Both the position numbers and the translations under genes were made by a program. 64,000 nt of DNA, taken from Hydrolagus affinis. Taxonomy: Eukaryota. Positions 3,465-55,911 of this stretch are shown here, in pieces; the stretch's first letter is position 1; each line of letters starts with the position of its first letter. The notes under the pieces were generated by a model that did no database searches, was not told where the DNA came from, and worked only from the letters and a program-made list of their open reading frames with translations. The stretch is from the NCBI GenBank assembly GCA_012026655.1, contig JAAILG010000964.1:1-64000 (forward strand), given 5' to 3'.

Positions 3465-4612
3465 ACAACAAAATTATATTTGTATAGTGCCTTTCACATT
3501 GGGAAAACGTCCCAAGGCGCTGGCCAGTCAGGGTTTCAACCCGAGCTGGGCTCGGAAGGGTGGAGGGAAAGGAGGGGATTTCAGGTGACTGATGGGACTG
3601 TTGAAGAGGAGAGTCTTGAGGTGGGAATTGAAGGAGGCTAGGGAGGGGGCAAGGTGGAGGGACTGCAGGACGGAATTCAAGAGGTTAGGGGCAGAGTGGC
3701 TGAAGGCTCGCCCGCCAATGGTGGGGAGGTGTGGGTTGGGGGACAGGGAGCAGGCCGGAGCCTATTGAGCGGAGGGTGTGGTAGAGGACACGGGCTGCAG
3801 AGTTCTGGATTATCCGCAGCCTGTGGAGGGAGGAATAGGGAAGGCCGACAAGCAGGGTGTTGGTGTAGTCGAGCCTGGATGTGATGAAGGCATGAATGAG
3901 AATTTCAGCGGCCAGAGGGATGAGATAGTGGTGGAGTCGGGCGATATTGCGAAAGTGAGGGAAGGCAGAACGGATCATGGCTTGGATGTTCCTGACTGGC
4001 TTGGTGAGGTGGAGTGTGCAACCATGGAGGTTGATGCTATCAGTGCCTGATGTGTGAAGGCACTGGCACGAACCGATCAAGAGGGCCTCGGTCTTGTTGG
4101 CATTCAGCTTTAGAAAGTTAGTTCTCAAGGACTTGATGTTTGACAGGCTGAATGTCAGGACAGCAATGGTCCTGGATTCTAGGGTAGAGGGAGAAAGATA
4201 GAGTTGGATGTCATCCGCATACATATGGAAGCTTGACCCCCATGTATGGGGGTGTCACCAAGATATGTAGATGTTGAAAAGTACGAGGCCAAGGAGAGAG
4301 CCCTGGGGATGCCACAGGTGACAGTGCAGCGGCTTGAGGAGAAGCCATTGGTGGTGACAAAGTGGAGACGGTGAGAAAGGTAAGAGTCGAACCAGGCGAG
4401 GACAGGTCCATGAAGATTGAGCAGGGAGGAGAGACAGTGTAAGAGGATGGAGAGGTTGACAGTGTCAAAAGTAGTGAGAGGTCAGGAGGCAGAGTCCTGA
4501 TCACAGAAGTTTTAAAATATCGTTTGACCAGGGCTGTCTCCGTGCTATGGGAAGCACAGAAACCAGTTTGTAGGGGTTCAAAGAGGGAATGGTGAGAGAG
4601 AAATGAGCAAAG
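3465..4612 (-). mobile_element. 5'-truncated, frameshifted L2-clade LINE (reverse transcriptase C-terminal part and 3' UTR)
   Basis: ORF 3685..4224 contains YADDIQLYLS, NFLKLNANKTE, LIHAFITSRLDYTNTLLVGLP and LRIIQNSAARVL. The tail ACAACAAAATTATATTTGTATAG starts at about 3465. Confidence 0.93.
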
Positions 4613-7600
4613 CTTACAAGTAATAGAATGTCTTGGGAAGGGAGAGAGGGAGACAACCTTCCAGAAGAGATTTTTTATTGACTTTTAAATTATCTGTGCT
4701 TTGAATGAAATACAATTATTCCAGTAAGTACTGATGCTCTGCAATTTGTACTTAATGTGCATTTCATCCTTGAAGAGTAGTAAAATATTAACAATCTGGA
4801 ATAAAAGCGCATTTCTAATATTACAAGTTTTTTTTAAAACAAAAACACATACTTGTGATTTTAGTTTGTACATTGGTTTACAACTCAGTTATGTCTTTGA
4901 GAGCCTTAGAGGTTAGGATGTGGGATCTTGATATGGTGAGCTCATAATCTCAGCAATAACATTAGGGAGCACAATAAGGGCAGGGAGAAGAAAAGGTCAT
5001 AATGTGAGTTAGGTTGAGCTGCTCTCTGTATGTACAAAACTGGGGCAGTTTGATTACTCCCTTCCATTGGGGAACTGTGTGCAATCGAATGTTCCTAATG
5101 TGTGTAAACAAATTGAAAGTACAATGGCTTTTTAACAAAAAATTCAATAAAGCTTCATATAAAGCTTTTAAGGAAAACAAGAATTATTGCACCGGACTGT
5201 ATTCCGAAGATAAAAGATAAAAATGTAGATACAACTGTATCTTGGGTCCCAACTGAAAATCCCAAATCTGCATAATGTATAAACATTTTAAGCATTGTAC
5301 TGTAACATTCAGATTATGCATAAAAATATCTGATAGTTGTCATTTATTTACAGATTTTATGATTGTTCTGACTAGAATGTTAATGAGTGTTCAGAGTCTG
5401 GCCATATGGAGAAAATGTCATATGGTAGCATAATGAATCCAACTGGGAAATGGTTCTGATGAAAACAAAATCACAAATATGCTAACAGTGAAACATCATT
5501 CTAAAGAAATCAATTATTGCAGTAAACAAAGGATAGTTAGGAGTCAGTCATCAAATTGAATAAACCATAAAGGAAAAGCCTGACTTTGTACAGAAAAGTA
5601 ATAACCAAATTCCTTGCTTTCATCTGATGCACTAAATGAACACATACATAGTGCAGATGGTTTCTCATGTAACAACACATTTGTGGTGTGGAATGTATGT
5701 GTATATGTCATTCTTTACTCAATAACTATTTTTCGACATAGTACCCTACTCACAGTAATAATAAAATATAGAACTTACCAGTCAGCATTCTGGACTGGAT
5801 AAGTGTGATATTAAATTTATTCACAGAACATTTCCTACATAAGCTCGCATTTCTTCCTTTCTAACCTGCGAATATTTTCAACTGTACTGTAAAAAAACCC
5901 TGAATTTTAATTTTTACCAGCATGTCTATATGAATTACTGCTAGACATCAGTCATTGGTTTCTCATAATTTAGGTCAGAGCAGGGGGTGTTCTTATTTAT
6001 TCAACACAGTTATATGCGATTGAAAAGAGAAACCACTGGAGACTTATTAAATAGTTTATTGAAAAAGATTATAATGGTCTTGAAACCTAAATTAAACATG
6101 CAGTGGGCTGGGTTTTTAAGAAACATTATTTAAATCCTCTCTTTTGTAATACTTTTTTGTTCCATATACAGGTATATTAGTTGATAGCCTCTAATGTATT
6201 GAAATGACTATAAAATACAGTGCATACATCAATGACGCTCTCATAATAAACTCAATTAATTCAAATAGGGATTTTAAATCATTTATTACTACATCTGCAT
6301 TCTAATATTATCACATAAAACAAGATTATTTTAATATAGCTGATCTAAGAAGCAGTGAACGTATATCTTACTCTAATTTAACTGACTGGGCAGTATTTTT
6401 GCATCATTTAGATTTTTTAAATGGTATAATTTGCAATTCCAAGGATTTGATTACTTTATACCTGGGGTGCAGAGTAACTGGTGCATCAGGAGCATAGTTT
6501 AAACAGATTGGCAAAAACCGAATTAGAAGAGTAGATTAGAATAGGAATACTTTAGATCCTTGCAAACAAAATTACATTTTGTATCAGAGCTGCCTGACAA
6601 TAGTTTTAGTTTTGGTGGTCGCAAGATTTCTACATGCAAACTTCCATTTTTTTTTGAAACCAGCACACTAATCCTTGCAATGGATGGGACATTACTGTAA
6701 ATAAAGTGGAGAATAAATGGTACATCTACCTTCACACCAAAAGCCCTAGAATTGTTCAGATTGAGATTAAGAAAATATCAAAAACATAGCTTAGACCTCC
6801 AAGAAATGGGCCTGTTAGAAGCAATGACTGCCATAATGCCACTGCAGACTATCAATATAAATGCTTAAATCCATGTTAATACAATTTTCTTAATTTTTCA
6901 AATGCAAGAACCTTGGTTGTACCTCCCACCCTCACCTCACCAATTTATCAGATGTTTGTTTAAGTGAATTTGACTGCTGAATCATATTATTAGTGCTTCT
7001 TTTGCCCCAAATTGGCCTTGCCACAAGCAAGGAAAGTCAATTTAACATGCTAACAAATGGCAACAAAGCATTATAATTGAAAAAGATGTTGTACATCATT
7101 TAAAGCAAAGTTTTGTAAAAGAGAACTCTTCCCTAATTTTAAGACTTCATCATTCATAAGTATCCATGAGGTACCAGACAAAGAAAATAAACACTTGGAG
7201 ATGATTAAATTACAAATAAATTAGACAACACAATGATATTTTACTCCATTATTTTACTTCTACTCTCCTTTATCCTGTAGCAATTATCCAAATAAAACCC
7301 TCAGTTTGCTACAATTGTCCTACGGGGCCTTATTCCCTTTCTGGCACTTTTAATTTTTATGCAGGTTTTGTTGTAGCATTAATTGAATCATATTGAAATT
7401 GATATTCAATGCATGTGTTTGACATGCCTCATTATAAAAATTTGTATATTAATATCAAAAGATGGTTTCCATACAATTCTACAAAAATGTGCAAAAGAGA
7501 TTGCTAAAGAAAGAGAAGTGCCTTTCCTATTAACTGAATACTTTTTGTGGTACAACACCATTTTTTATTTTTCCAATTACATTTAACAGTTAAAAACCCA

Positions 7601-18730: not shown

Positions 18731-19031
18731 ATAATAATAATCCTTGCATTTGATACGTCTTCTAGATGTCTCAAAGCGCTTCACAGAATATACTGTAAAG
18801 TGAATTGACTGTATATATGTGGGCAGAATGCAGCAGCCAATTGCACATAGCAGTGTCCCCACAAGCAGTCGTGGATTGAAATGACCAATTTATTATTGGG
18901 GGTTTTTTAGAGGGATTATTATCAGGCGTGTGGAGTAAGGAAACTTGCCCAAGGTTTCACCCTGCCAGGAATTGAACCCAGGTCTCCCGATTCTAAGGCG
19001 AATGCTCTAACCACTGAGCTACAGGACTCCA
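18731..19031 (-). mobile_element. Near full-length tRNA-derived SINE with Deu-like body and L2-like tail
   Basis: Minus-strand head GGAGTCCTGTAGCTCAGTGGTTAGAGC (A box) and GGGTTCAATTCC (B box); body GTGGGGACACTGCTATGTGCAATTGGCTGCTGC; tail AAATGCAAGGATTATTATT. Confidence 0.9.
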
Positions 19032-19096: not shown

Positions 19097-19271
19097 CTTG
19101 ACTGATTGACTGTAGGGGCCAATATTAGCAGGTGCCCAATGTGAAATGCTCTGAACATGCATCACTTCCTTTTGTTCTTTGAATGAATCCTGTGTGGTTA
19201 ACTCATTTCTATGTACAAGGCAATCAAGCAGGAGTAATACACCATCAGGTAATGAAGCTTCCACACAAACC
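19097..19271 (-). CDS. DPH6: DPH6 exon 12 (175 nt), end of Rid domain 1 and start of Rid domain 2
   Basis: tgtttag|GGTTTG...GTCAAG|gtaaga. Encodes [68 protein letters not shown] is the Rid N-terminal motif. Confidence 0.96.
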
Positions 19272-22200
19272 CTAAACAAACAACAAGAACAATTTCACAT
19301 TTGATATCTGTTAATTTATGGATGATCAAAAGTCCTCTTCAGCTACACACTTTTCATGGATAATACAAAGGGTAGATCTCATGAGCCAAACTAAATGAAT
19401 AATAATAATAATCCTTGCATTTGATAGAGCGCTTTTCATGTCTTCTAGACATCTCAAAGCGCTTCACTGTAAAGTGAATTGACAGTATATTTGTGGGCAA
19501 AACACGGCACCTAATTGCGCACAAGCTATGCCAACTGCTCTCAGTTGGTAGTACACTGACCTGCGGGTGCCATCTTTCAGAAAATACAATAAATCACAGG
19601 CCCTGCTACCTGTTCTGTACATTAAGTTATGGACCTGGCTGTCTGTTCAGGTGGACTTTAAAGATTCCATAATACAGTACTAATTGAAAAGTTAAGTAAG
19701 TTTCTTCTGGTGCTCAGGCTAAATGTCCTCCAGATTAATGTATCACCTCATGATCAATTGTGGGACCTTGACAGTATAAATGGCTGTGTCATCTGCTTAC
19801 AAAGCAGTCACTATTTTTGCTAAAGAACAAGAGTAATTAACTTTGATTACTTTTGAGACATCCCAGCAAAGTTAAAGCTTTGGAGGAAATATTAACTTTA
19901 GAAACGGAAAGTCTAATTGCAAATAATGCCGTCAGAGTGGACCAATTCTTCACAGATAATATTAGAGTATAACCAAGAGACCAAAATGGATTTGTCATTT
20001 TATTAAAAAAAATCTTTCCTGTGCTGGGGTGAAATAGCTTTAAAAAAACTAAAAGTTCCAGATTCAGTCACAAGTCTGACTTCAGCCAGGCTGGGCAGTA
20101 ATTACACCACAAATAGCCTCAGGATCCTTAGGTGATAGTTGCAAATCTGCTAGGGTTCTTGATTCTGATCACTATCAAGCTTTGTCTTCCAGAAAACACA
20201 CATGTGGTCAAGCTTTAGCACAGTTAGCTGTGTTTTATATTACCTTGCGGGCGGATTTAAGTTGAAGTAGGACTGGTAGACTAAGTTTATAGCACCAAAA
20301 TCACTCATGGTTTGCACATAGAGGTGAACCAGAATGATGTCCGATAATGTGTATCCTTTTGCTTCCAATTGAGCTACAAAAGAAAAAAGTACATTATTTA
20401 CAGTCTGCTCCATGTCCCCGACTGGCCCACCGCACCAGTGGTCTGTCCATCAGTCTCTCTACCCCACCCTTTTGGACTCCATCCTAGTCCTTTCGCCTTA
20501 CTCCATCCCGTGCCTCCTTCAAGGCACATCTCAAGAATCTCCTCTTCAACCATACCTTTGGCTACCCTCCTACTTCTATCTTCTCTGCCCGCCACCCCCA
20601 TCCGATCCCAACATCCTACTTGGGTCCCAATCCCTGAATGCCCAGCACCTTTGGACATCCTTCTGATATGAAAGGTGCTCTGCAAATATGATTTGTAGTT
20701 GTTCATTTTAAAGGAAATTCTAAATGTTTCAAGCATGAAAATGGTAGAAGTATAAAATTTATTTATAGTGTTATTCTTTATTTTATAAAACTGCAATGCC
20801 ATGAAAGTCAATTTAGCAACCTTTTAAGAGAAAAGTCGCATTTTTGCCTCATATCCCTCAATGCAATCAGAATGACCTTCATATACAGTGCATTATAAAG
20901 GACGAGTGTTTCATATACTTTGTTCAAGATATTCTATCATGTTTACCATTGTCAAGAAGATTGTTTTGTTAGAAAGGAGCAGAGAACCTTTTTTTTTGTT
21001 GTTTTGCAGATAATGACAATGTTTTCCACATTACCTCATAGCCCTAAGTGCCACAGTATTTTCCAAATCATTCCCTGCACCCTGCTTGTAATGATGCATA
21101 TTACTGAGAGCAAACTGTGTCAAAGGCCTCATGTTATTGAAGTGACAAGTAATTATAACATTTTTTATACTGAGTGGAAGTTATAATCTATTTCCATGGC
21201 GCAGGATAAAAATGCTTCCTAAATAAAGAAGTCTAACAAAATACCCTGCAGTATGAAAAATGCTTCATTTGTCACATTATCAACGTTCTTCCCATCTGTA
21301 GGAGAAAAAGTCCCATGAATGCCACTAATCCATTGGTATCCACTTTTTGACTTCCTAGACCAATGATTTATCTCCTCTGAAAGAGAAAAAGGAAAATAAA
21401 TAACACAATATGAAAACATTAAGAAAGGATCAAGACCATCCTTCGGCCACCACTTCTCTGTCTACCACCCCACTGGCTGGGTCCTAATCCCTGACTGTTC
21501 AGCACCTTGGGATGTCCTCCCAATTTGGAAAGCATTTGTAATTTTGTATTGCATGTAAATTATATTACATAGAGAACAGTACAGTTATTAACAGTCCCAA
21601 GGTGGGGCTTGGACCCAAAACAACAACATGCCCTATATAGTGCCCTTCACGCGGGGTAGTATCCTGGAGTGCTTGAGTCAGGGGTGAGAGTGCTACCAAC
21701 TGGGTTGATATTTTGCGTTACAAACAGATCTTAGTGTTTATGACCAGTCAGAGATAAAGCTTATGAATTAAATTTTAGAATTCCTTTAGAGGAATGGAAT
21801 TAATAATAATAATAATCCTTGCACTTTATGCAGCACTTTCCACATCTTCTAGACATCTCAAATCGCTTCACAGAATATACTGCAAAGTGAATTGACTGTA
21901 TAATTGTGGGCGAAACGCAGCAGTCAATTGCACACAGCAGTGTCCCACAAATAGTTATGGATTGAAATGACCAATTTATTATTCTTTTGAGGGATTATTA
22001 TTAGTAAGGAAACTTGTCCAAGGTTTCTGCCTGCCTGGATTCAAACACAACTCTCACATTTGTAACCACTGAGCTACAGGACTCCAAGAAGAAGTCACAC
22101 TATTTGTAATACAACTTCAAAGAGTATTTTATCCCAGAGTATTTTACGTCCTCTCGACATAAAAGGCACTCTATCAATGTAATTTTGTTGTTGTATCCCC

Positions 22201-25200
22201 AAAATATCCATGACTAATCCACACACAGTGTCATTTGTTCAGTCTCAAACATACCAGGTTCAGATGAACTATGAGAGGTTGGATTCCACAAGACCTGTAG
22301 ATTTGAATGTTCTCCACGAAGTTCAGTCTGTACATTGTTCTCCATGTCACAGCAAAATGAGCAAGAACCCAGTTTACTATGTGATATGCCTACAGTCACC
22401 TGCTATATAGAATATATATTTCAGTTTCAAAAAAGCTCTACCAGTGAACAAATGCAGAATAAACAATAACAAAATTACATTTGTATCGCGCCATTCACGT
22501 TGGGAGGAGTCTCAAGGCACTGGACAATCAGTATTTCTGACCTGAGCTGGGGGTCAGGATGGAGGAGGGTGATCAAAGGAACCGTCAAAGAGGAGGATCT
22601 TGAGATGAGTCTTCAAGGAGGCAAGGGAGGCGGCAAGGTGGAGGGACCCTGAGATGGAGTTTCAAAGGGTGGGGCAAAAGGACTGAAATCTGTCACAGAC
22701 TAAATTTTCTCAGTAAAATGTCTTATATTGTAATTGATTGCAGTATACAGGAAGGTGTAAATGGTGAAATGGAGAACTGATGTACTTCATGCAATCACTC
22801 ATCCTTCTAAATGACATGTTCTATTTTTAAGACTGTATTTTCTCATGATTGTGTTTGTAATTTACACATTTAATCTAATAGGCCATAATAATTAAAATAG
22901 ATTGGGGCATTATTATAAAGTATTAAGCGGGTTATAAGTATACCATATCATTTATAGTACTGTACTACAACTACTTAATAAGGATAGTACAATACTTAAA
23001 AAGACTTTAGAAAAGTATTTTAAAACAAATTACATGCTGTAGTCTGGTTATAAAAAACGCCGTGAAGGTTTGCAAATGAGAACCTTGGAAAAACGAGAAA
23101 CTTGCCTAGAGTCGAAATACATACAAAATACAGTAGAAGGGTTATTGCAGTGAGCAAAAAATATTTTAATTTTGAATGCATAAATGCAGTGACTGAAACT
23201 CCCATGAGAAAAAGTCTGATTTCTTTAGCTGTCGTAAGAACTTTAAAAGAAAAATCTCTAGATTTAAATATTGATACCAAGGAATGTTGTTCTGGTATGT
23301 GAGTGAACATGTTGATAAAATATGCAACTTGAGATTACATTACTTTTTCTGAAGTATCAAATTATTGGTGGAAAACCATAATTGGACAGCGCAGTATTAA
23401 CAGAGCCCTTGCCATAGAATCGCATTTCTCACCTCATCTAATCAGCTTCCAGTTTGGGCTGCATGCTGAGCAACAAAACTGCAAACATTAAAGACTTGCA
23501 TTATTATCCTCTCAGGAGAATCTGCTCATCTGAAGTACTCCATGAACTCTCTATACTGTACCAACATTAATTTTGCATTAAAAAGAATTAGTACAAGAAG
23601 TATGTTGGAGGATAGGGTGCATTTTGCCAAATACAGATTCTGTACTCATGACCAATGTGTAATTGCATTTTTAATGAACACTCGAGTGTATCAAGATGCC
23701 TTTCACTAGACACAAATGCTGTGTTGGTGTCAAAGAGAAATTTTAAACTGATCTTCTGGCAATAAGGCATTATTGCCAGACAGGTGAAACAGTAGCGCAG
23801 AAAGCAGGACGATGGTCTGATGTGCAGTGCTACAAGTTCATAACTCACCATGTTGATTTCCAACATGGTGAGTTATCAATCTTGGTTGGTTGTGCTGATA
23901 CATGGTATCCTCAAGCAGAAAGCAGGCATTTGTCAACCAAGAGGAACAATGAAAAAATGCCATTTCACCCCCAATTAGGGATGCTAAAGAAAAACAGGAC
24001 CCGATAGACTTTCAGACACCTTTCAAATGTTATGATAAAACTATCTCAAGCAAAATCCCACCCATGTGTATATCTAATTAAATGTTCGGGCATGCTGGGC
24101 TACATAGGCACAAGAATTTCCCAAAAGAGATTACACTTCATATCATTGAGAACAATATGTTCATTATGCTAGTCTTTTGCAGATGGTTTTAAAGCATCCA
24201 CCCCCCCAGGTCCTGCTGAGCTCTACCCCGCCCCACCACCCTCTCCCGACTCCAGGTCTTACTGAGCATTTGCTATTCCACCTAATTCAATGGATCAGAT
24301 TTCAGGATACAAAGGAGATGTGATTGAATTATCTCTTCATATTTTGGCTCTTACTGTAGCCAATCACATGAGAACCAGCACACAACTGAACACCAATCCA
24401 AATTAGAATATGAAGTGAATTAAAATGGGGGCATTTTGAATTAATTCAGAAAAAATTAATTTAGACCAATATTAACTACAGTATTTTATATTCTGGTCTG
24501 GCAGGTGTTTCCTAAACAAAGCAACAAAATTGAACAGATAAAACTGAAAACATAGTAAAGATATCACATGATTGACTGAGCTGACGTTGATAAGGGCTTG
24601 ACATTAAACCAGACCTGAGTAAGAAATTTCTAGCTTTGGAATAGAAGCCTGGTTGGGGGTAGCGACATGAACATGTCCCAAGTTACAATTCATGTGTTAC
24701 AGGCAAGGATTACAAATAATTGAGGTAAAGATTTGCTGCTAGAAATAGATGCCGAAGAAACTTCAATTGTTTTCCTTTTTAAACCTTGCAATTTTGTGGT
24801 ATTTTGCTGGGGTTTTGGCTCTCAAGGGGCAAGGGGAGGATGACACCTGGGGAAATTGTGAGAAATATATGGACTTTTAACACATTTGTTGACAGGGGTT
24901 TGTGGGATGATCTCTGAGGCATGCTGCATTTAAGAGGGCCATTTATTCTTTCATGTTTGCACTGGCACACAGTAACACAAAGTAATTGCTACCAGAACCT
25001 TCCACTGTGATCTAATGGTGACCTTGTTCCGTACTCCCATCGGTCCTTCTGCCTGACTTGCAGTTAGTGGTTTATTTTTAATTACGTGCTGAATTGTCAC
25101 AAAGATGAATAGGCAGCAGCAACACAACAGTTGAAGCAAGGAAGGGGCACTGGAAAAGACACCTATTTTCAGAAGAAACGGGAAATACTGAAAACATTAT

Positions 25201-28200: not shown

Positions 28201-31200
28201 TCTCTTCACTTATCAAGGATGATCTTAGTTATTCAATTGTGATCAAATACATACTCCTCTCAACAACAACAACTTCGATTTATATAGCGCCCTCCATGCC
28301 GGATGGCGTCTCAGAGTGCTTCACATTAACAGATCACGGGCCAGGGGGAGGGGGAAAAGGTTGACCTGAGGCACAGTCGAAAAGAAAGGTCTTCAGCTGA
28401 GTTCTGAAACTTTCCTGAGTCTTCTCTGCCTATTAATGCAATAACATTTTATGTTATTACAGCGAAAGCCTGTTTATCCGGCACCTGATCAGCCGTAACT
28501 TCCGTATAACCGGCACATTAAAAAAAAGTCCGCATTCGATTAACAGGAATTTATCCGGAAAAATGCATTTTTTTTTGCTGTTTTCGGCCGAATATCCAGC
28601 ATGTGCCAGGCATTGGCCAGATCCTGAGGGTGCCAGATAAACAGGCTTTTATTGTACATATTAACATAACACAGCCAATTAGTTTCATATAAACCATGCA
28701 AGTCAAGTATGATGCATTAGACCAAAATAGTTTAAAAGTTTGTTTTTATATAAAGTTCTTCTTTTGAATGTAGACAGGGAAAATCCTTTTTACTTTGGCT
28801 GGGGAATTGGTGACAAGGAGGCATAGTCTCAGGGTTATGAGCTGAAAAATTAGGTGAGAGAGGAGACCAAATTTCTTCACTTGAGGGGTTTGGAATACAT
28901 TATGAAAGGTGGCTGTTGAGCTTGGATCAAGGCAGAATTGTTCAAAGATGGGCAAAATGGGCAACTGAGCACTATATATATATATTAAGGGATATGTGGA
29001 GAGAAATGTTTAATGGAAATAATGAAGGACGAGCAATTTGGAAAGTCTGGTTCAGGTGTTACCAAAGATGTGATATCTGAATGCTCCTCCCCTTTTCTGG
29101 GGAGAAACTTCTCTGTTTCTATGTGTCATTTTTGCCCCCCAAATTATCTACCTTTTAATATTAAAATACCACCCTATACATATTATACAGTAGGTTCAAT
29201 AATCACTGAGATATTCATCCTATATGAAAATCATTACAGGTGGAACGTCAATAATCTGGCACAGTTGAGTCCAAGCATTTCCTGGATACTGGAGTTTGCC
29301 AGTACAGTATTTGGAAACCTAGCCTCACCTAACATTGCATAATTTTACCAATGTTGTTTTATTTACCTGATATAGTTTTATGTGTTACTTAACATGATTT
29401 ATGTATAAGAATCTATACATATATGAAGAAATAATTGCTAGTACTTAAAAATAAATTAATTGTAAATTTAAATGTAATTTTTTTTAAAGTGCCGGTTTTA
29501 GGGAGTTGCCAGCTTTCGGAATGCCTGATTATCAACATTCCACTGTATTTAAGTGTAAAGCAGTGTTGTAAGTACTGTACATGATACATACACATCAACA
29601 ACAAAATTACATTTATAGAGCTCCTTTCATGTCTGGAGGATGTCCCAAGGCGCTGAACAGTCAGGAATCAGGACCCAAGAATGGGGAAGGGGCAGGGTAG
29701 GGGATGGGAGGGAGAGAGGTGGGAGGGTGACAGAAGTCAAAATCGAACACAAAGGTCTTGAGACTGGCCTTGAAGAAGGCAAGGGAGAAAGCGAGGCAAA
29801 GGGACTGTGGGATGGAGTTTCCAGAGTGTGGGGGCAGAGAGGCTGAAAGCCCAGCCACCAATGGTGGGAAACATGGAGCAGACCGGAGCACGCTGAACAG
29901 AGCGGGAAAGCAGGTTGATAGGAAGTCAATTAGTGCACTTCAAATTTACCAAAGAAATGATCAAATAGTAACTCACATTAGGTTTATTCTCCAGATGTAC
30001 ACTCAAAAACCTAAGATACCCAACAGGTGCGAATGCGTCAGCTGAATGGATAACTACTTCCGAGGAATCACTGCAGAAAATAATAAAAGATCATAATTGC
30101 AGAGTTCATCAGTTAGCAGAGTATTCACTTTATCAAAATACCAAAAAGTGCCATCACTTCAGGAAATATTTATCGCTGTAAAACAAGTGAAGGGTCACAC
30201 ACAAAACGTGAACCTATGTTTCTTTTTTATTTCCTGATTTGAGTTATTATGGATTTGAAGCAATTGGTGTTTTTAGTTCAGGTGTTCAGCATTCATTCAC
30301 TTTCTAAAAAGTGGCACTAAATAGAGTCTAGGAGCAGCAATCTTTGCTATTTTTCCCCCCTGCAAAGACTACAGTGAGAAAGACACAGAAGATAGATCAA
30401 AAGCCAAATACACACTTACGATCCTGAACCACCAACATCTCATATTGTTAAATGGGATATTGTTAAACTAGAGGCCTATCATTAAGGTTTGTTTGTGAAG
30501 GATCAATCAACAGAGTCTTTTCTTTTTCCCACATTAATCATTCCTTTACTCTCCCTATTCTCAATTATGTTAACTGATCAAACCAAGCCATCGCAACAGG
30601 TAAAGCACAAGCAGAAGTAATTCAGATAATAAATTCAACTAAACTATGATGGCATGTAGACTTCCATAGTAGTATAAACCAGAATGTAAATGCATATTAA
30701 ACAGTGATGTTTTTATGAATAACAAATAAAGCAATTCAAACAATTTAATGATAAGCAAAGAATTCATTAGTGGAGAAGGTAAAGGATCATCCTGAACACT
30801 GGGTGAAACATATTTCATGGGTAGAGATTTTAGTAGGCCACAAACTGCAGGAGCTGATAGGCAGTGAGTGGAAATGTATTGCCTTGAGTGATAACCAGGA
30901 AAAACTAGCCTGGTGGGAATTCCTTAATTGGAAAGGCATTCCAACCAGGCTGGAAAGTGCATTTGAATAGCAGAGGAGTATTGCAGCACATGGGAAGTTA
31001 TAATCCTTCTCATCTCTTAGGAATGTCAAAGACCTCAAAAACATTTTAATTAAAACACTTCTCAATTAATGAAGACATTTTAAAACAGTCACCGATAGAC
31101 TCTAACTGTCACATATATGTAATACGGTTTTAAGCGATTTTTCAAATGTTTGCTTTTTTGTTATGAAGCAAATCTATGTAAGAAAAGGGATTCTGGTCAA

Positions 31201-34200
31201 AAATATTAAATCTAAGGGGATGGTTGACTATAAGACTGTCATAATGTTAGTTCCCAAGTATGTCAGTCCATCTAAGAAAAAAAATCAAATGAATGTTCAC
31301 AGGGACAAATTTGCCCTGTGGTATCACTTCACTCTTGTTAGAGCTGATCATGTAACCAGAGAGGTACTCTTCTTGCTGGACTGTTTGAAAACACATCAAT
31401 GGCAGCCTTATGTAGAGCAGACTATTAGCAGTATAAAGGGAATGGTTATATCCATACCACCAACCTCCACACAGTACATGTTTGGATTTGATCTAATTGC
31501 AAGAGTCAGGAATTCAATCATCAAAGCAAAGGTGACAGTGGATGTTGCTGGGATGTATGTACCACATTGCAATGGGAAAGAGAATGAATGATACATTGTC
31601 TGCAGTAATTAAGATCCTTTCTCAATCTTGGAACGAAGTTCAGTTTATAAACTCAAACAGCAGAATCCTGCAAAATCGGATGTGGAGATTATTCTTAGGG
31701 TTTGGCCACTTTAAATCTTCGAATCAGCTTTAGTGACTCATAACCTCACTCTTGACTACAGCTTTACTTGTATGTTCATGAGGCAAGTAAAACAGTTCAA
31801 TTTCACAATTCACAAGATTGATTAACTATAACAATGTGAGGCATCACAAAATATATATAGGATATGAGGCACAATGTATTTTTAAAAATTATAAAAGTAG
31901 CACAGCAGAAAGTTTTGTCTGTGTGCACCCTTCATCAATGCCTGCTCTCTATTGCTCCAGCAGCGGCACACATCAATACATTATCTTTGTAGGAAGCAAC
32001 TGGGTAAAGTTTCCCCCAATTCAGCACAAGGAATCTCCACTTTATGGGCCTGTGCCAATATCCTGGATGTTCAGTGTTATGAATATCATTCCCTTTTCAC
32101 AGTGGACCTTCAGCCTTGCCAGAAATAAAGACTGCATTACCTCAATTTCCTCAGACATCCTGTAAGATTGCAGAATCTTGCTTTTTATAGACTATTGCAA
32201 TAAAAGCAAAGAAAAATAACTTTTCAAGACCCAGCCTTGCTAAATTTCAAAAAATCCACTAGTTTCCTTGTGAGGTGGGTGTGTAAACTCACCCAAATGG
32301 TACTTAACCCAAACTCCCACCACCTCAAAAAATACAGCTGCAGCATCACTTAGTTCCAACAAAATATCAATTCATGTCCTCAGGTTTCCACAGTAGTTCA
32401 TGTTGTTCCAACTCCAGATTCTCTGAGCAGACACTTTGTTTTGAACATTTTAATCCTTTGGTTGTGCCCACATCGTCACCTAGCTCTGGGAAGGAGGCCA
32501 ACTTGCCTCAGCACAATAGTGGCCAGACAAAAATGAGTTTCCTGGACTCCTCATTGGAATGGATCTTTTCTGCTAAAGAGATCTACGATGGCATGTGTCC
32601 AACCTTTGAACAGAAATATCCTCTGCCAGGTAGGGGAAGTTTTTGTTAAAAAAAACTACTCTACATTTTTCTTGGGAATGAGCAAGTAATTTGGAGTGAA
32701 GTACTTCCCTCTTATGTTTATTTAGTATGTAACCTTGAAAATACTGTACAACATTCAAAACGCATGTATACATCAAGCTGCACTTTGATTATTGAATGTT
32801 AAAACTCACTGATACTCATAACTGAACAAAGAAAATTTCTCTAACCCTTAAGAAGTGAAGGATTACACCAAAGGATACAGCTTGCCAGCACTTGTTAAAT
32901 AAGCCGTTTAGATCGTAGGTTAAATTGTTTTCTTCAACGTAATTGGAGTTAGGCAATTAATTAAGATTCTAGAATTATGTGGCATTAATAAATAACCATT
33001 GTTTGTCATTGAAAATATTTTCAAAATTATGAGGCATGCTTACAAATTACAACTGGAAGTTTAAACATACAGATTTGTACCACCAAAAATGTTACTGTTA
33101 ATATATTTACATAACAACTGAAAGCATAATTTTTGTGAAAAAAAAAATTTCGGCCAAAACTTCAAACAGACTTGCTAAGCAGGAAGTCAGCCAGCAGTAT
33201 TGTTCCCAATAACAATTTGCCTTTTGTAAAACTGAGCTTAAGGATGGATAATTAAACTGAGGAAACAGCACTCACACAACTATTCTCTTCTTGAACAAAG
33301 GGCAGTCCAGAGTAAACGTTTCATACTCTCCACCTTCTCCACATACATGAACTCCATACTTCTGAGAAATCTGCAAAAACAGATATGTTGTGAATAAAAG
33401 CTTCTAGTATTGTCAACACAGTGCTATGATACTACTGATGCTGGGTTGTGATGTGATGAAACAGTTTCATTTCTGCTGCACTTATTAATACATGTTCAAG
33501 AGCACAACAATCTTATTTTGATGATCAGCATGCTCTGTTTTTATGTTTTATGCCCAGAGTGTTTTCAACATAAGGAGCACAGCATATCAGTTACATCACA
33601 GTAATACATTTTTCACTACATGCAATCTTCAAAAACACGATACTAATTGTGAATATTTTAAAGTATGAGACTACAACATTAAACATTTCTTTGTTATCAA
33701 AATTCTCTATCATCTGGGGTCTACAGGTCTAATCTTACAGACTTTTCTCATACAGTATGACAGCATGGAATGTAGTGCCACTGGGTTATCTTGAACAGAG
33801 GCATGAGCTGCAGCATGTACTCTTACAGTTGGATTTCAATCCAAAAATCAAGCAGACTATTGAAGTAGTCAAGAATCACAGGAATACCACAAACGGCAGG
33901 GGGCTGTTCCAATGCACTTGCCATCAAAGGGCCAACATATTCCATTTACTGTTATAAACAGACCATATGGAAGGTTGCTTTGAAGAAACCTCTCCGAGCA
34001 AATCCTGGGGTTGTAGACTCTCACCAGACTATCAACTGGAAGTAGAACATGTTTGGGTGTCAGAGCCTTTCCCTTTTGCAAGGACGAGAGAACCTTCCTC
34101 AAGAAGGCAACTGGAAATCTTCAATGAGAAAAAACATTCATGAAGCTGTGGGTCCCTGGGAGTTACATTTTTGCTCTGAGTTGCACCGTACTTTGCATAG

Positions 34201-37200
34201 GGAGCTAATGCTGGAATCAGCATAAAATGCTAAAGTGAGAATGAAAAGACCTGCTAGATTTAAAGCTTGTTCACATATTTTGTAGTTTTGTTTAGTTATC
34301 CAGTTACAGTCATGGAGTCTTCATCGTGCTGTGCCATTTTAGCAGCACACGATTAAATAATCTGTACTAGAGAGCTGCCGGCACCCATAACACTGTACCC
34401 AAAAAGAGGATCGTGAGAGGATCACAAGTGAAAACTAGATACAAATCCTATTTATACCTGAAGGAGATATGGCTCCATTTGCTCCAACGTTTTCCCAAGA
34501 TGTTTCTCTGGATCCAGACCTGCAACAATATTGTTATTCTTAATTTTCATTTTCTTTAATCATCCCTATGTGCAAAATCAACTGAAATGAAGTTCGGGAG
34601 ACAGCTTATTTACTTTACACCCCTCCACCAATGGCAACTCTGCCATCATGGAACGCTGAAGTTCATCAAAGGGAATTGAATGAAAATGACCAACATTTCT
34701 TTTGATGCCTTACTCAACTTGTTGTTAGTCAGTTTTAATACCAACAACAACTTGGATTTATATAGTGCCCTCCACGTCATCTCAGTGCACTTCACAAAAC
34801 GGATCCCGGGGCCGAGCCAGGGAAAGAGGAAAAAGGTGACCGAAAGCACGGTCAAAAAGAAAACTCTTTAGGCGTGACCTGAAAATAGGAAAGGAGGGGA
34901 CGAGGCAAAGGAAGTGAGGAAGGGAGCTCCAGAGCCTCGGGTGGTAGTGGCTGAAGGCATGGCCGCCGATGGTGGAACAAAGGATTCGGGGACAAGGAGG
35001 GGGACAAGGAGGCGGCCAGAACCAGTAGAGCAAAGGCAACGGGTACTATTGTGAGGAGAGAGGAGGTCAGACAGGTAGGAGAGTGCAGAAGTGTGGAAGG
35101 ATTTGAATACAAGAGTGAGAATCTTGAAATCAATCCATTCCGTGACAGGGAGCCAGTGAAGTCTGGCAAGTACTGGGGTAATCGGGGAGTGAAGTTTGGT
35201 TTGGATGAGTATGTGGGCTGCGGAATTATGAATAACCTGGATTTTATGAATGGTGGCAGAGGGGAGGCCGGTGATGAGGGCATTGGAATAGTCCAACAGA
35301 GAGGTGACAAAGGCATGGACCAGGGTTTCGGCAGCTTTAGGGGTGAGATATTGGCGGAGACGGGTGATGTGACGGAGACGGAAGAAAGCGGTGCCATGAG
35401 AAAGGTTGGCAATCGCAGCCTATTATAACTTACATAACTTTTCACTGTCTGAAACATTAAGTTCCTTGCTTTCTACATTAGAAATCTATTAAGTTTTTTT
35501 GATTGATCGTAATTTACTTTGAACTGGATGTACACAAAAAAAGTTTATTTATTTTTTCATTAATTGTATTTACAGAGAAAAGTGAATTCTGGTCACGTGT
35601 GGTTACAGTGCTGAGGCTTTGATGTACTTGTCAAGTATCAATCTGTATGATGTTCTCACATGACCTGCTGTTCAGCACCATTTCTCCATCAGAAACAGAA
35701 TCAAGAAGGTTGATATTATTGACCAGTGAGTAGGTAAAAATCTAACCAGGAAAAACTTGTCATTAGAAAGGATAGAATGGGTGCTTCCGCTTTCCTTTAC
35801 AAAGCTGTGCTGCATTCTGTCTGTACTACATTTATAACTCTTTCCTACCAGTAAAAGTTGTTACTTTATTTTCGAGCATTCTTCCATCTCAAAAACAGTT
35901 GCCTAGTACTCGGCTGTGCTTTCCTCAACTGAGTGAGTGTACCAGTTGTGAGACACAAACTTTGATAAAAGTTCACACAAAACAAAAGGAGGTGTTTCAC
36001 CTCAAGGGAATGAAATTATGGCTGACAGAAAATCAGATGAAGAATACAAATGAGTAGTCAATTGAGGTCCTGCAGGAGCTAACCCTGGTTTGATTTGACC
36101 TTTAGATTTGATCCCAAACACATTTTTGCAATACTAACTGTTCTGCATTTACTTGAAGCTGCTATTTTTACCCTCCCATTATAAGTTTACAGCATGGACA
36201 CATCTGAGTGACAGAAAGATGCATCTTAAACCACTTCTGAGCAAGGCATTATATATCAAGATTATAATATGCCATTTAACAAGCCATTGTAAATTGAAGA
36301 AAATAAGGGGACTGAATTTATAGTACTCTATCTGTAACACATTTTAAACTTTTTAAAATATGATGTGGTACATTACATTGCCATATCTAAAAGGCCAATT
36401 TGGAGAAAAGGGTGATGTGCAGAATGCTTTAATCTAATTAAGAGTTCCATGCTCTATGCAGTTGTTGAATGTGTCTAACTGATTTTAATTGAAGACATGA
36501 AAGGCGCTCTACCAATGTAATTTTGTTGTTGTTGTATTGCAAGATTAAATATGCAAAAATCTTCAATATAAACCACACTAAGAATTAAACGTGTTAAAAA
36601 ACTGAACTTCGACATGAAACAGGCTGCCAAGTGTAGGGAGTGGACAAGTTAGTATGGTTTAGGTTATAGAGGTTGTGAGAAGAAGCATGTGGAGGGCTTT
36701 CAAAGTGAGGGGAAGGATTTTAAATTTGATTGTTTGAGACAGGGAACGTTACAAAATGAAGAATGATTTTCAAATATTAGAGAACATTTTGAACAGATGG
36801 CTGGAATAAGAATGGCCCAAAGTATGAGTGATAAGTAAAGATATAACCCATAAAGGTTCATCAGTACTATATATGCTCATTCTAGGACTGACAAAAAGAT
36901 ATGATTTTATTTATTTTTATAAACAATTTATTATTCAACTTCCTCCACCAGCCACCAAATTTACTTAATCTAAATTTAAATTTAAGAAAGGGAGGACATT
37001 TCAAGACTTTGTGACCAGAAACATGTGGAAACAAGACAGTCTAGCATTGGAGCATTGGAGGAGAATTGCGTAAACAAAGGTACCATCCTTCAAATGAGCC
37101 ATGGAACTATGATCCTGCTTTGTTCAGGTGGGAGTTAATAAGCCATGGCACCATTCAAAGAGAAAGGAGTTAATTCAGCCAACAATTAGCCCAGATTTTT

Positions 37201-43200: not shown

Positions 43201-45064
43201 TAAAATTCCTCTCCTTCTGCTTCTTATACTGTCTAATAACATGTGATATTGACAGGTTTGATTAAAGGCATTTAAAAGTAATTACCTACCTCTGGCAGTC
43301 ATTTTCCAACATCCTGCCTTTTCCTTATCTGTTCAAATTGTTTTGTGTTCGAATGTGTTTGCCTCTGGCAGATCTCTTTACAGTTTTATAAAAAAAAGTG
43401 ATTGATGATTTTAACTTTTTCTCCAATATTTGACAGCTGCTCATTTGGAGGTTGTGGTTATACAAAGGAGTGGGATTATGTTGTGTTAATAGACTGCTCC
43501 CATGCGGCCTGGATACCTACCAAAAGCTGCTACTTTGATTATCACGGCGTGAACATTAGACGATATAATTTCTCTCAGCAAATCTTCCTGGTTTCGACGC
43601 CAGAGGTAAGCTAAGGACTGGAGATTAAGTCGCCTGCACCTGTGCAGGAAAATTAAGAGATGTTCAAGCTGGATACATTTCAAAAATACTGATGCTCTTT
43701 AAAAAGGTGAATCTTTTAAACCACTATCATAGCAACAGACCAAGAGCATTAACATGGTCCACATTCCAGAAGACAACAGCACAAGACAGGCCTTAGGGTC
43801 TTAAAGAAACAAAATACAAGAAGCTAGCTCAGGAACTCGTTCACTTATTTAAATTAAAGTAGTTTTATTTCTACAAACATACTAAAAAAAATAGTGGGGA
43901 TAGCATAGTCTGTTAACATAACACACCCAAACTGCCAAAACGTATTGTGGCATTGCACTGCTTAATGTTAGGATGCTGCCTTACAATCACAATTCACCAC
44001 ACAGTGAACTCTCAGTTTTGCCCAATTTGTCTGGGGTAGAAAGCTAGAGATGGGAGTACAGAGTGACAGGTACCATAACCCTCTAATTCACAACTCCAGG
44101 GCAGCATCAACAAGTTCATGCTTGCTCTCAAGCTGTAAATGTGGAATAATAAAGGGAGGGAATGGGGAGAGGGGGGTCCGTGTGAAGCCCCTTTAAAAAT
44201 GTGATAGAAAAACCATAGTGACTCATTTTTTGAAGAATAATTGGAAAGATTAGAAAACTGTCAGTAAAATCAAGACAGGAACATTGTAGAGCTCCTAACT
44301 ATATTGCAGCATTTGGGTTTAATGGGTATTACAGATAGTACTTGCTTGTGATGTCTGACCATCATAATTTCAATAGGTAGACAAGTGAAAACATCTTCTA
44401 GTTAATATAAAATATTTAACACAGGGCCTCAGTGATCTATTCTTATATTTATATTATAATATCCACAACAACAAAACCTATTATCAAGTCAGTAAGGGCA
44501 TTTTAACTTTTCATAGCACACAGAATGCCTTAGGATACCTGTACGGTTGGAATCTAGTATTTTCTGGATACATCCAAATGCTGCCCTAAGGTAATATTTG
44601 GTATAGAGATAGAGTTAAAGCAAGAAACAAAAGGTAAAATTACATTCATAGACTATTTCAAACTATTGTAATGGTTCAGAGCATCAGCATTATCTCATCG
44701 TAACAATATTGCTCAGTCTATAACTTCAGTGTCATTACCTAATTCCCCTTCACACAAACAGCAATGTTCCAGATAAGATCAATATACCCACATGTACCAC
44801 TAGCATAAAACATCTCAATTAAATGTACAATTTTTTTCTACCAAGATCACAAACATTCACTAATGCACAAAAATGAAGAAGATGCCTGTAAGATTTGCCA
44901 TCCTATCTTTTCATGTACAAGTCAATGCATTAAACAAATTAAATGTAAAAGTTTATAAAATAAGAAAGAGAAAATGAACAGATTGCTTACACATGTTCTA
45001 CTCTGACACGTTGGTAGTCAGAAAGAATGGCACCGACTGAAACTCCTTTGACTCCCTCCTTCTC
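19097..45064 (-). CDS. DPH6: DPH6 diphthine--ammonia ligase, long form with C-terminal Rid domains (partial gene, 9 exons in window)
   Basis: Exon lengths 74+119+62+95+94+145+132+130+175 = 1026 nt. All junctions are GT-AG with matching phases and the frame stays open: [50 protein letters not shown]...[22 protein letters not shown]...[14 protein letters not shown]...NPPARVCVE...[21 protein letters not shown]. Confidence 0.97.
19398..19527 (-). mobile_element. tRNA/Deu-type SINE, 3' half
   Basis: (AAT)n-CCTTGCATTTGATAGAGCGC...AATTGCGCACA, same family as 18731-19031. Confidence 0.8.
19560..19870 (+). mobile_element. Old DeuSINE (AmnSINE1/SacSINE1-like Deu domain)
   Basis: GGTGCCATCTTTCAGA...TCAGGTGGACTTTAAAGATTCCAT...TTGTGGGACCTTG...AATGGCTG are collinear with the Deu domain as recalled. 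Confidence 0.6.
20244..20373 (-). CDS. DPH6: DPH6 exon 11 (130 nt), core of Rid domain 1
   Basis: ttttgtag|CTCAA...GCAAG|gtaata. Encodes [43 protein letters not shown](R), with the Rid pattern DF..N..Y..F...PAR. Confidence 0.95.
20401..20703 (+). mobile_element. L2-clade LINE 3' fragment
   Basis: CTCCTTCAAGGCACATCTCAAGA...GCACCTTTGGACATCCTTCTGATATGAAAGGTGCTCTGCAAATATGATTTGTAGTTGTT. Reverse-complement homologue of 29596-29925. Confidence 0.85.
21245..21376 (-). CDS. DPH6: DPH6 exon 10 (132 nt), start of Rid domain 1
   Basis: ctctttcag|AGGAG...CTGCAGG|gtattt. Encodes (E)[43 protein letters not shown], with the GYQWI.GI motif recalled from long-form DPH6. Confidence 0.9.
21425..21550 (+). mobile_element. 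Degenerate L2 3' fragment
   Basis: GGGTCCTAATCCCTGACTGTTCAGCACCTTGGGATGTCCTCC matches the L2 3' UTR. Confidence 0.65.
21798..22086 (-). mobile_element. tRNA/Deu-type SINE, near full length
   Basis: Head GGAGTCCTGTAGCTCAGTGGTTAC; body and (ATT)n tail as in 18731-19031. Confidence 0.88.
22146..22194 (+). mobile_element. Isolated L2 3' tail
   Basis: ACGTCCTCTCGACATAAAAGGCACTCTATCAATGTAATTTTGTTGTTGT. Confidence 0.7.
22255..22399 (-). CDS. DPH6: DPH6 linker exon (exon 9, 145 nt)
   Basis: tagcag|GTGACT...AACCTG|gtatgt. Encodes [48 protein letters not shown](E). It supplies the phase 0-to-1 change needed between its neighbours. The peptide is poorly conserved, so the call rests on splice sites and phase. 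Confidence 0.78.
22463..22690 (-). mobile_element. L2-clade LINE 3' fragment
   Basis: ACAATAACAAAATTACATTTGTATCGCGCC...TCTTGAGATGAGTCTTCAAGGAGGCAAGGGAGG, homologous to 3465-3710. Confidence 0.85.
26060..26413 (-). mobile_element. tRNA/Deu-type SINE, near full length
   Basis: Tail AATAATCCTTGCATTTAATATAGCGCC and degenerate head GTGGAGCTTGTAGCATCGGTTAGAGCACTCACC. Confidence 0.82.
27050..27300 (+). mobile_element. Old SINE-like repeat of a second family
   Basis: GAGTTAACTGAATTCAGCTG...GGCACTACAATTG...AGGGTTCCTGCTCCTGA. Related degenerate copies occur at about 20055-20180 and 55965-56060 (CAGCCAGG...CTCCTGATGACTATCCAGTG). Confidence 0.5.
28261..28415 (-). mobile_element. L2-clade 3' end, second subfamily
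   Basis: (CAA)n-CTTCGATTTATATAGCGCCCTCCA...TCTCAGAGTGCTTCACA, shared with the RT-bearing copy at 34742-35420. Confidence 0.75.
28460..28654. mobile_element. ~195-bp Tigger/pogo-type MITE with TA target duplication
   Basis: TA|CAGCGAAAGCCTGTTTATCCGGCACC ... GGTGCCAGATAAACAGGCTTTTATTG|TA. A second copy lies in the opposite orientation at 59893-60091. Confidence 0.9.
29237..29545. mobile_element. ~310-bp Tigger-type MITE with TA target duplication
   Basis: TA|CAGGTGGAACGTCAATAATCTGGCA ... TGCCTGATTATCAACATTCCACTG|TA, imperfect terminal inverted repeats. Confidence 0.75.
29596..29925 (-). mobile_element. L2-clade LINE 3' fragment
   Basis: (CAA)n-AATTACATTTATAGAGCTCCTTTCATGTCTGGAGGATGTCCCAAGGCGCTG. 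Minus-strand peptide [14 protein letters not shown] resembles the end of L2 ORF2. Confidence 0.88.
29977..30070 (-). CDS. DPH6: DPH6 exon, equivalent to exon 8 (94 nt), end of the synthetase domain
   Basis: ttttctgcag|TGATTCC...CCTAAT|gtgagt. Encodes [31 protein letters not shown]. Confidence 0.96.
33276..33370 (-). CDS. DPH6: DPH6 exon, equivalent to exon 7 (95 nt)
   Basis: ttttgcag|ATTTCT...GTTGT|gtgagt. Encodes [31 protein letters not shown](V), containing the GEGGEYET family signature. Confidence 0.97.
33930..34160 (+). mobile_element. Possible highly degenerate RTE-clade LINE fragment
   Basis: Translation [32 protein letters not shown] resembles the RTE ORF C-terminal pattern LPKQILY.EL..G.R..G....R.KD. 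Stop codons are present. Confidence 0.35.
34458..34519 (-). CDS. DPH6: DPH6 exon, equivalent to exon 6 (62 nt)
   Basis: ttgcag|GTCTGGAT...CTTCAG|gtataa. Encodes (G)[20 protein letters not shown]. Confidence 0.96.
34742..35420 (-). mobile_element. 5'-truncated L2-clade LINE
   Basis: ORF 34868..35296: [29 protein letters not shown]...[28 protein letters not shown]. (CAA)n tail at about 34742. Confidence 0.93.
36615..36745 (-). mobile_element. Degenerate L2 ORF2 fragment
   Basis: GTGGAGGGCTTTCAAAGTGAGGGGAAGGATTTTAAATTTGAT is homologous to 35091-35135 (FKIL.L.FK.LH region). Confidence 0.55.
37075..37362 (+). mobile_element. Old DeuSINE
   Basis: GGTACCATCCTTCAAATGAG...TCAGGTGGGAGTTAATAAGCCATGGCACCATT...TGTGAAGTGCC...GATGCTATATCAAA. 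Confidence 0.6.
39052..39285 (-). mobile_element. Old DeuSINE
   Basis: (ATA)n-ATCCTT tail, AATTTGCGCACAACAATGTCCCACAAA and GAATAGTG...TTTTAACATCTATCTGA. Confidence 0.6.
41253..42040. mobile_element. Non-autonomous Tigger-like DNA transposon (~790 bp) with TA target duplication
   Basis: TA|CAGGTAGACCCTGCTTA ... TAAACAGGGTCTACATG|TA. Repeated subterminal (T/A)AACGAA motifs and a CpG-rich interior. Confidence 0.85.
41640..41866. mobile_element. MER46/Tigger4-like MITE fragment nested in the 41253-42040 element
   Basis: The right end CCGAAACTCCAGATTTTGGACGCTCAACCTG|TA reads CAGGTTGAGCGTCC on the other strand, a Tigger4-type terminal repeat. The left end is unresolved. Confidence 0.55.
43521..43639 (-). 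CDS. DPH6: DPH6 exon, equivalent to exon 5 (119 nt)
   Basis: cacag|GTGCAGG...TTTG|gtaggt. Encodes [39 protein letters not shown](G). Overlaps ORF 43486..43683. Confidence 0.97.
44991..45064 (-). CDS. DPH6: DPH6 exon, equivalent to human exon 4 (74 nt)
   Basis: ttttgcag|GAGAAG...CATGT|gtaagc. Encodes [25 protein letters not shown], containing the GAILSDYQR motif. Confidence 0.97.
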
Positions 45065-54703: not shown

Positions 54704-55911
54704 CAGGTAAGCCTCTATTTAGGACACTTCTATTTAGGACATTTCAATTGAAGGAACATAATTTTTTTAAAACCTTTTGATCGACATAGGTCACTTGGAT
54801 TCGTTTTAACGAACAAATTTTTTGTTGTGCATGCTCAGTACATGTTTTGAATATTGCGGTCGCATTTTGCGCGTCCTTTTTGTCCATACGCACAGTCCAT
54901 AGTGTATTCGCAGGTAAATCGCGCCCGCGCCTGATATAGTGTATCCAAGAGTTTGAACTGGCGAATAGCATGTCGCAATGTAATCGTTTAAAAGCCAGCT
55001 GATTTTGAAGCAACACCATGCCACATCAGTATTACAGTAACTTCCGAACATTCCCGAGCAACTTTACAGCGATTTACAGCCTCTACCGCGTTTCTACCAT
55101 GTCAGGAAGAGACAGCAGTAAGTGAAATGAGCAACGGTAATACCACTAGCGGCAAGAGACCTCGCAAAGTCATCACTTTAAATCCTGAATTAGAGGTGAT
55201 AAAGTGCATTGAGTCTGGCAAAAAAGGTACGGACGGGAGGACTTTCGGGCTAGCTAGATTGACAGTGGCTACTATAAAACAGAATAAGGACAATATACTG
55301 GCAAGTTCAAGATGTGTTACAACTACAGGTGCAAGCAAATTAGCAAAACATAGGAGTGATGTGATAGAAAACATGGAAAGAATGCTGAGTGTCTGGATTG
55401 AGGAACAGAACCAGTGTAATACAACACCCAACTCAACACCCTGGTTATCCAAGAGAAGGCAAAATCATTGTTTTGGGAGTTAAATGATCAGGAAGGAGAA
55501 GGCTCAATGACATCATCTTTCAGTGCTAGCAGAGGGTGGTTTAAAAGGTTTAAAAGACGCTATGGGCTCCACAACATCAAGATGAGTGGGGAAGCTGCAA
55601 GTGCCACTGCCACTGTCATACTGCCAGTATTAAAGTTTGCCAGTAGTGTACAGTATTAAAGTTTGCCAGTATTAAAGTACAATACCGTACAGTTACCCCA
55701 AGTACCCCTTCTTGCCTATGTGTGTTAATTTGTGTGTTTTGTGTGGTTGTGTGTGTTATTTAGTGGGTTTAAGGTCCGAAAATTTCGTGAAAAGAACGCA
55801 TCTCTGGTTATATAATGGGACCGCATGGGAAATCGTGTTTCGATTTAGGACGTTTCGATCTAGATACAGTTTTTCAGGAACGCAACCCTGTCCGAAATAG
55901 AGGTTTACCTG
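54704..55911 (+). mobile_element. Internally deleted Tigger/pogo DNA transposon (1208 bp) with TA target duplication
   Basis: TA|CAGGTAAGCCTCTATTTAGGACA ... TGTCCGAAATAGAGGTTTACCTG|TA: 23-bp terminal inverted repeats with 2 mismatches, enclosing a transposase remnant. Confidence 0.95.
55127..55612 (+). pseudogene. Tigger transposase N-terminal remnant (CENP-B-type HTH_psq and HTH_Tnp_Tc5), frameshifted, no DDE domain
   Basis: KRPRKVITLNPELEVIK...TVATIKQNKDNI...MERMLSVWIEEQ, then a frameshift to FSASRGWFKRFKRRYGLHNIKMSGEAASA. Confidence 0.92.

Follow-up and report, generated by a model that had tools for sequence, protein, structure and literature searches.

Dph6 of yeast (Ylr143w) is the closest described counterpart of the gene analysed here and has an orthologous architecture, i.e., a ligase fused to YjgF-YER057c-UK114 (Rid) domains, which correspond to CDD eu_AANH_C1/C2 (PMC3585130, PMC3709272, PMC3541065). 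The ATP-dependent amidation of diphthine on eEF2 has been established for the yeast and human DPH6 orthologues (PMC3585130, PMC5354562). An ammonia supply by the Rid domains of Dph6 was already proposed in 2012 and 2013 (PMC3541065, PMC3585130, PMC3709272), and the role of these domains has been named as an unanswered question ever since. Yeast Dph6 needs these domains; deletions are reported to be non-functional (PMC3585130), as is a mutant with seven exchanges (F373A N377A R396A Y449F S450A G467A Q468A; PMC3709272). In another subset of the Dph6 family, the fusion partner is a glutamine amidotransferase (PMC3541065). In the available text of these papers, the yeast protein is described with two Rid domains and a possible homotrimerization, in contrast to the complementary half-sites, the third domain and the single pocket proposed below.

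Rid-fold trimers made of a single chain are also in print. RidA, TdcF and UK114 (PF01042, TIGR00004) consist of three identical chains with three pockets. The chorismatases FkbO/Hyg5 (4bps, 5a3k and 5ag3, the latter two of which we take to be Hyg5) are single-chain pseudo-trimers with one site, for which the Arg is provided by the preceding domain. In TdcF, the pocket is located between the subunits, where Asn88 orients Arg105 and Glu120 bonds residue 107 across the interface (PMC1884159), and Arg105 has been reported to mark the imine-hydrolysing Rid subfamilies (PMC4433059, PMC5619798). The 3x-RidA fusions, e.g., EF_0115, have three Rid domains per chain and are presumed covalent trimers; as far as they are described in the accessible text, they are stand-alone proteins whose domains are all recognizable as RidA, unlike those of DPH6 (PMC4433059). 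The FIST domain of FBXO22 is pseudo-three-fold with a chorismatase-like fold, possibly derived from YjgF monomers (PMC11185555).

The window analysed in the current study, i.e., the whole stretch of 64,000 nucleotides from Hydrolagus affinis (contig JAAILG010000964.1), carries a long-form DPH6 gene on the minus strand, which is most closely related, among named proteins, to P0002 of Callorhinchus milii. Nine DPH6 exons are located inside the window, and tblastn and a splice model placed two more upstream on the same contig. The same two methods identified the exons of the ligase (PP-loop) domain at 44991..45064, 43521..43639, 34458..34519, 33276..33370, with the conserved ligase motif GEGGEYE, and 29977..30070, where the domain ends. 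Its assignment is based on PF01902, for which P0002 scores 158.9 bits against a cut-off of 23.2, and on the motifs SGGKDS and GEGGEYE; the ligase domain of the predicted model matches the fold of 3rk1 with a Z score of 30. PF28410, which is found on most matches, was considered as a third domain and rejected, since it represents Diphthami_syn_2_C, by name a part of the ligase. The linker between the ligase and the Rid module (22255..22402; splice model and stranded RNA depth) is poorly conserved, with a mean of 0.10 among 137 relatives drawn from the best-scoring 150 of 7965 matches.

The Rid module begins with three minus-strand exons flanked by AG/GT, namely 21245..21376 with the start of domain 1, which is devoid of the Tyr17 loop (splice model, profile alignment and stranded RNA depth), 20244..20373 with the core of domain 1 (splice model, profile alignment and an RNA junction to the next exon), and 19097..19271 with the end of domain 1 and the start of domain 2 (splice model and RNA). 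An earlier, sequence-only reading of this DNA had assigned the region 19097..21376 to tandem Rid domains of DPH6. Its coordinates are exact: on the minus strand, one exon starts at base 21376 and another ends at base 19097, and the peptides that it quoted are present in exons 21376-21245, 20373-20244 and 19271-19097. The minus-strand codons equivalent to Asn88 (20285-20287, exon 20244..20373), Cys107 (19265-19267) and Tyr17 of domain 2 (19112-19114) as well as the Leu at the Glu120 position of domain 1 (19229-19231), the last three all in exon 19097..19271, could be pinpointed. An intron interrupts the codon for the invariant equivalent of Arg105, with bases 1-2 at 20244-20245 and base 3 at 19271.

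The remainder of domain 2 and the entire domain 3 are encoded outside the window by three 3' exons on a second contig, G000:C2450 (49431-49189, 33282-32889 and 21662-21544), whose recovery had been suggested by the sequence-only reading and which specify Gly31, Pro114 and Glu120 of domain 2 as well as a Leu at its Arg105 position. Joined at AG/GT, the DPH6 exons result in a single open frame, in which 629 of 687 aligned positions are identical to P0002; the first coding exon, of about 8 codons, is missing from this reconstruction. In three RNA runs from one sample, the reads over exon 19097-19271 are confined to a single strand, and their overhanging ends agree with the upstream exon in 9, 8 and 5 reads, respectively. 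The contig gap is bridged by 13 reads of one run, which continue into the next exon on G000:C2450 with an agreement of 0.99. Two of the 175 bases of exon 19097-19271 differ between the reads and the window, so that the RNA stems from a different individual or a closely related animal. The phase-0 exon of 243 bases at G000:C2450:49189-49431 (L001:1690-1932), which comprises the core of domain 2 with Gly31, is retained in 13/13 junction reads here. According to a motif test, 53 of 198 vertebrate protein records seemingly lack it through in-frame skipping, with aligned examples from sharks, a turtle, lizards, birds and a marsupial, and judging from the sequence, the resulting isoform would be devoid of the pocket.

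Besides this gene, some further features of the window and the genome were recorded. The segments 18741-19031, 19398-19580 and 21800-22100 belong to a very high-copy repeat family with a read depth of thousands to millions, and a tRNA-like segment (18957-19028; Rfam RF00005, 49.5 bits) forms the end of one copy, as expected for a tRNA-derived SINE. The long open frames 3688-4684, 34855-35472 and 54992-55480 look by eye like decayed pieces of LINE reverse transcriptases and a transposase-like piece. Elsewhere in the assembly, G000:C28462:2617-2742 (L008) is an exon that probably belongs to a stand-alone RIDA gene.

For the comparison of Rid residues, E. coli RidA and TdcF (sequences from NC_000913.3) were aligned to the domain profiles, and positions are numbered according to P0002. 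A representative search yielded 7965 matches, of which the best-scoring 150 were taken; 13 without both domains were left out, and all counts based on the remaining 137 relatives lean towards conserved residues, because only top-scoring matches were sampled. The 13 dropped rows have no differing residue at four checked positions, showing only gaps apart from two misaligned short tails. Named members of the set include a tunicate, a moth, a teleost, chytrids, a basidiomycete, Dictyostelium and a green alga.

Domains 1 and 2 correspond to two PF01042 stretches in Pfam with profile E values of about 1e-21 each versus RidA, and they match the Rid fold with Z scores of 16.6 and 19.7, respectively (domain 2 with individual RidA/TdcF/UK114 structures: Z 18-20, rmsd 1.4-2.1 A). 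Among the 137 best-scoring relatives, domain 1 always contains N372 (Asn88) and R386 (Arg105), and domain 2 always contains Y439 (Tyr17) and G453 (Gly31), accompanied by P548 (Pro114) in 133/137 and E554 (Glu120) in 131/137. The mirror positions are vacant: Glu is found at position 400 of domain 1 in a single relative, Asn at position 512 of domain 2 in three, and Arg at position 539 in none of the 137. An alignment-free recount anchored on Pro114 likewise retrieved no Arg in domain 2 (0/133); an apparent Arg near this site in 31/137 had to be rejected, because insertion columns were included. The complete residue set is thus spread across both domains in 131/137 relatives, with five gapped and one substituted exception, and none of the DPH6 Rid domains unites Arg105, Tyr17 and Glu120. 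Tyr17, Gly31, Asn88, Arg105, Pro114 and Glu120 are the pocket residues shared with RidA, TdcF and UK114, in which they recur in three identical chains, whereas DPH6 has three unlike domains in one chain with one complete set.

The profile alignment to E. coli RidA supports the earlier assignment of Asn88, Arg105, Cys107 and a Leu at the Glu120 position to domain 1. It also bears out that the Tyr17 motif is present in domain 2 and missing from domain 1, which aligns from RidA residue 25 onward and hence lacks the Tyr17 loop, in contrast to RidA, TdcF and UK114. Domain 2 has Glu120 and no Arg105 of its own, so that nothing at the sequence level contradicts the complementary half-sites postulated by the sequence-only reading. 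This part of the proposal holds across the 137 best-scoring relatives, in which the pattern is near-invariant and hence not a matter of chance; the assumption of two fused domains does not, since three Rid-fold domains appear. Less constrained in the same set are the equivalents of Cys107 (111/137) and Ser30, which is mostly replaced by Ala (112/137), and the position of Asn56, with His in 71/137 and Asn in 43/137; the other canonical RidA pocket residues are kept. Mutants of Tyr17 and Glu120 in Salmonella RidA have been reported to show little effect, and the invariance observed here is therefore no proof of the same chemistry. H424, Q426, S429, W431 and Q441 (P0002 424-441) are at least 90% conserved in the 137 relatives, and the first four precede or depart from the aligned RidA motif; all five are candidates for residues that contact the ligase, line a tunnel or determine the substrate specificity.

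The tail of long-form DPH6 appears in structure prediction to be a third, degenerate Rid-fold domain (P0002 residues 568-695). It is weakly conserved (0.17; covered in 105/137 of the best-scoring relatives), and Pfam and NCBIfam recognise only two Rid stretches, with no Pfam match for domain 3. Its profile matches that of domain 1 with a probability of 78.8 (E 1.6e-5, versus 0.49 for the ligase control) and RidA only weakly (probability 7). The AlphaFold2 model of P0002 (92% identical; pLDDT 91.8, pTM 0.91) has the strand and helix order of Rid in domain 3, and a whale-shark fragment with part of domain 2 and domain 3, which was modelled separately, reached a pLDDT of 93.8. In this second model, the best structural matches of domain 3 alone are Rid chains, i.e., 9bk9 (Z 8.8, 111 aligned) and 3i3f (Z 8.7, 112 aligned), both at an rmsd of 3.5 A; the margin is small, with a third Rid match at Z 7.6 and unrelated folds reaching 7.4. 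The pocket residues conserved in domains 1 and 2 are not retained in domain 3; an anchored recount found Arg105 in 2/90 and Glu120 in 0/90 of the third domains. All scores of a feature search with domain 3 remained <0.8. Shorter, split or stand-alone relatives of domains 2-3 were also sought: among 25 matches, the strong ones were partial or split gene models, and none represented a true stand-alone module.

The predicted presence of three rather than two Rid-fold domains is indicative of a pseudo-trimer. Domains 1 and 2 of the model are placed like two chorismatase lobes (Z ~21, rmsd 2.3 A, 217 residues, 13% identity), and domains 2 and 3 also superpose on chorismatase (195 residues, 3.8 A). 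All three domains span the FIST domain of FBXO22 (8ua3; Z 16.7, rmsd 3.3 A, 254 aligned) and barbiturase (5hwe; Z 9.1, rmsd 5.5 A, 261 residues), which share the pseudo-three-fold arrangement of the DPH6 model at an identity of 5-9%. Chorismatase was absent from the matches listed (60 of 63) in the sequence-profile search. Given the superposition on single-chain pseudo-trimers, the Rid module as modelled is likely to form a trimer within a single chain, with one pocket intact. By analogy with TdcF and chorismatase geometry, this pocket would be located at the interface of domains 1 and 2, the sole one of three that is able to hold all these residues. The chorismatase alignment ends at model residue 560 and chain residue 340, so that E554 coincides with residue 334 if the last strand is ungapped; in Hyg5, the essential acid is Glu334 (PMC7170507). 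Unlike DPH6, the chorismatases act on a different substrate and have no ligase, and their degenerate lobe is seemingly the first and not the last. With a pTM of 0.91 across 696 residues, the model also points to a fixed packing of the ligase.

With respect to mammals, the available text of the earlier Dph6 papers describes the fusion as largely absent (PMC3585130, PMC3709272, PMC3541065), whereas marsupials and the platypus have long forms in our comparison. When the short DPH6 of gorilla was used as a query, the best 120 of 3852 long matches among annotated proteins included marsupials (five genera), reptiles, birds and fish; none was from a placental mammal. Five full-length marsupial proteins have kept the full residue set. 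The platypus protein P0390 is a long form of 716 residues from a low-quality record, in which Arg105, Tyr17 and Glu120 are present and an Asp occupies the Asn88 position, possibly due to relaxation or a sequence error. Judging from annotated proteins, the module was probably lost on the placental stem. In two short placental ligases, only one of 72 conserved ligase positions differs (V-to-I) and there is accordingly no signature of a lost interface.

Overall, the tail of long-form DPH6, in which domains 1 and 2 bear complementary pocket halves next to a predicted degenerate domain 3, would fold into a single-chain pseudo-trimer whose one intact pocket would provide the neighbouring ligase with ammonia by hydrolysis of a small imine or enamine acid. 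Because Arg105 marks the active Rid subfamilies, the pocket is likely to be a hydrolase by analogy, and an ammonia supply may be its biological role, with the chances slightly short of even. The seven residues mutated in yeast (F373, N377, R396, Y449, S450, G467 and Q468) fit the DPH6 motifs described here and span both halves, as judged by motif spacing and not by sequence alignment. The ammonia supply is challenged by several points: the yeast mutant could be misfolded, free ammonium suffices for Dph6 in vitro (PMC5354562), the short human DPH6 rescues yeast (PMC3585130), free 2-aminoacrylate is reported to last for only ~1.5 s, the Hydrolagus genome contains a separate RidA-like exon, and the placental ligases compared bear no trace of a lost interface. 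The comprehensive scenario, in which a single-chain Rid pseudo-trimer in DPH6 of many eukaryotes makes ammonia from a carboxylate-bearing donor, passes it to the ligase and was lost in the placental ancestor, is tentative and doubtful as a whole.

Some of these objections would suit a pocket that merely binds a carboxylate ligand, as a sensor or as a hold for a substrate or partner, and regulates the ligase without catalysis. The ligase runs on free ammonium (PMC5354562), truncated yeast Dph6 is dead and short human DPH6 works (PMC3585130), TdcF binds serine, 2-ketobutyrate and propionate via the same Arg (PMC1884159), FIST exemplifies the use of the fold without catalysis (PMC11185555), and the invariant H424, Q426, S429 and W431 are found in the extension before Tyr17 or replace RidA residues. 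We nevertheless consider such a binding-only module rather unlikely, given that the non-hydrolytic Rid4-7 subfamilies are described as lacking the Arg, which is invariant in the 137 best-scoring DPH6 relatives, and that FIST, according to the accessible text, binds proteins and has no obvious pocket (PMC11185555). The short lifetime of 2-aminoacrylate makes it a poor donor and would be circumvented by an ammonia-supplying hydrolase for a stable donor, i.e., an amide-bearing amino acid, carbamate or similar, that diverged in the manner of chorismatase. The latter represents new chemistry on this scaffold, its essential Glu334 (PMC7170507) would match the domain 2 Glu if the last strand is ungapped, and the Tyr17 loop of DPH6 is family-specific and invariant. 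A stable donor is still unlikely in view of the use of ammonium for amidation in vitro, the absence of a Rid amidase from the literature searched and the lack of an invariant nucleophile, Cys107 being present in 111/137 of the best-scoring relatives.

An imine deaminase for ordinary damage control, fused for co-location and uncoupled from amidation, would account for the conservation of all canonical RidA pocket residues save Asn56 and for placental mammals, which appear to manage without the module. This explanation is quite improbable, since point mutations in the yeast module abolish the diphthamide-dependent sordarin sensitivity (PMC3709272) and a separate RidA-like locus exists in the Hydrolagus genome. 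The suggestion of the 2013 paper that the pocket is formed between chains of a DPH6 homo-oligomer, combined with a tail that is not a Rid domain, agrees with the usual homotrimers of Rid proteins, the two stretches recognised by Pfam and NCBIfam and the weak conservation of domain 3. It is hardly to be expected given two confident single-chain models that superpose on single-chain pseudo-trimers, and we favour the intramolecular pocket of domains 1 and 2.

The fusion of DPH6 and Rid domains and the ammonia hypothesis are thus already in print. No account of the half-site split, the third domain or a placental-specific loss was found in the literature searched, although part of it may have been anticipated elsewhere. 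The current study narrows the question of the Rid-domain role to one pocket with a small number of invariant residues, and a monomer is predicted. Mutations of Asn and Arg in domain 1 and of Tyr, Gly and Glu in domain 2 are expected to matter, and those of the mirror positions are not. The apparent placental loss offers a natural comparison with the marsupial, bird and fish enzymes, and fungi keep a pocket that is absent in humans, a difference of relevance to sordarin biology. If the pocket feeds ammonia to the ligase, it would represent a different way of powering an amidoligase, and DPH6 would be an amidotransferase with a Rid module in place of a glutaminase.
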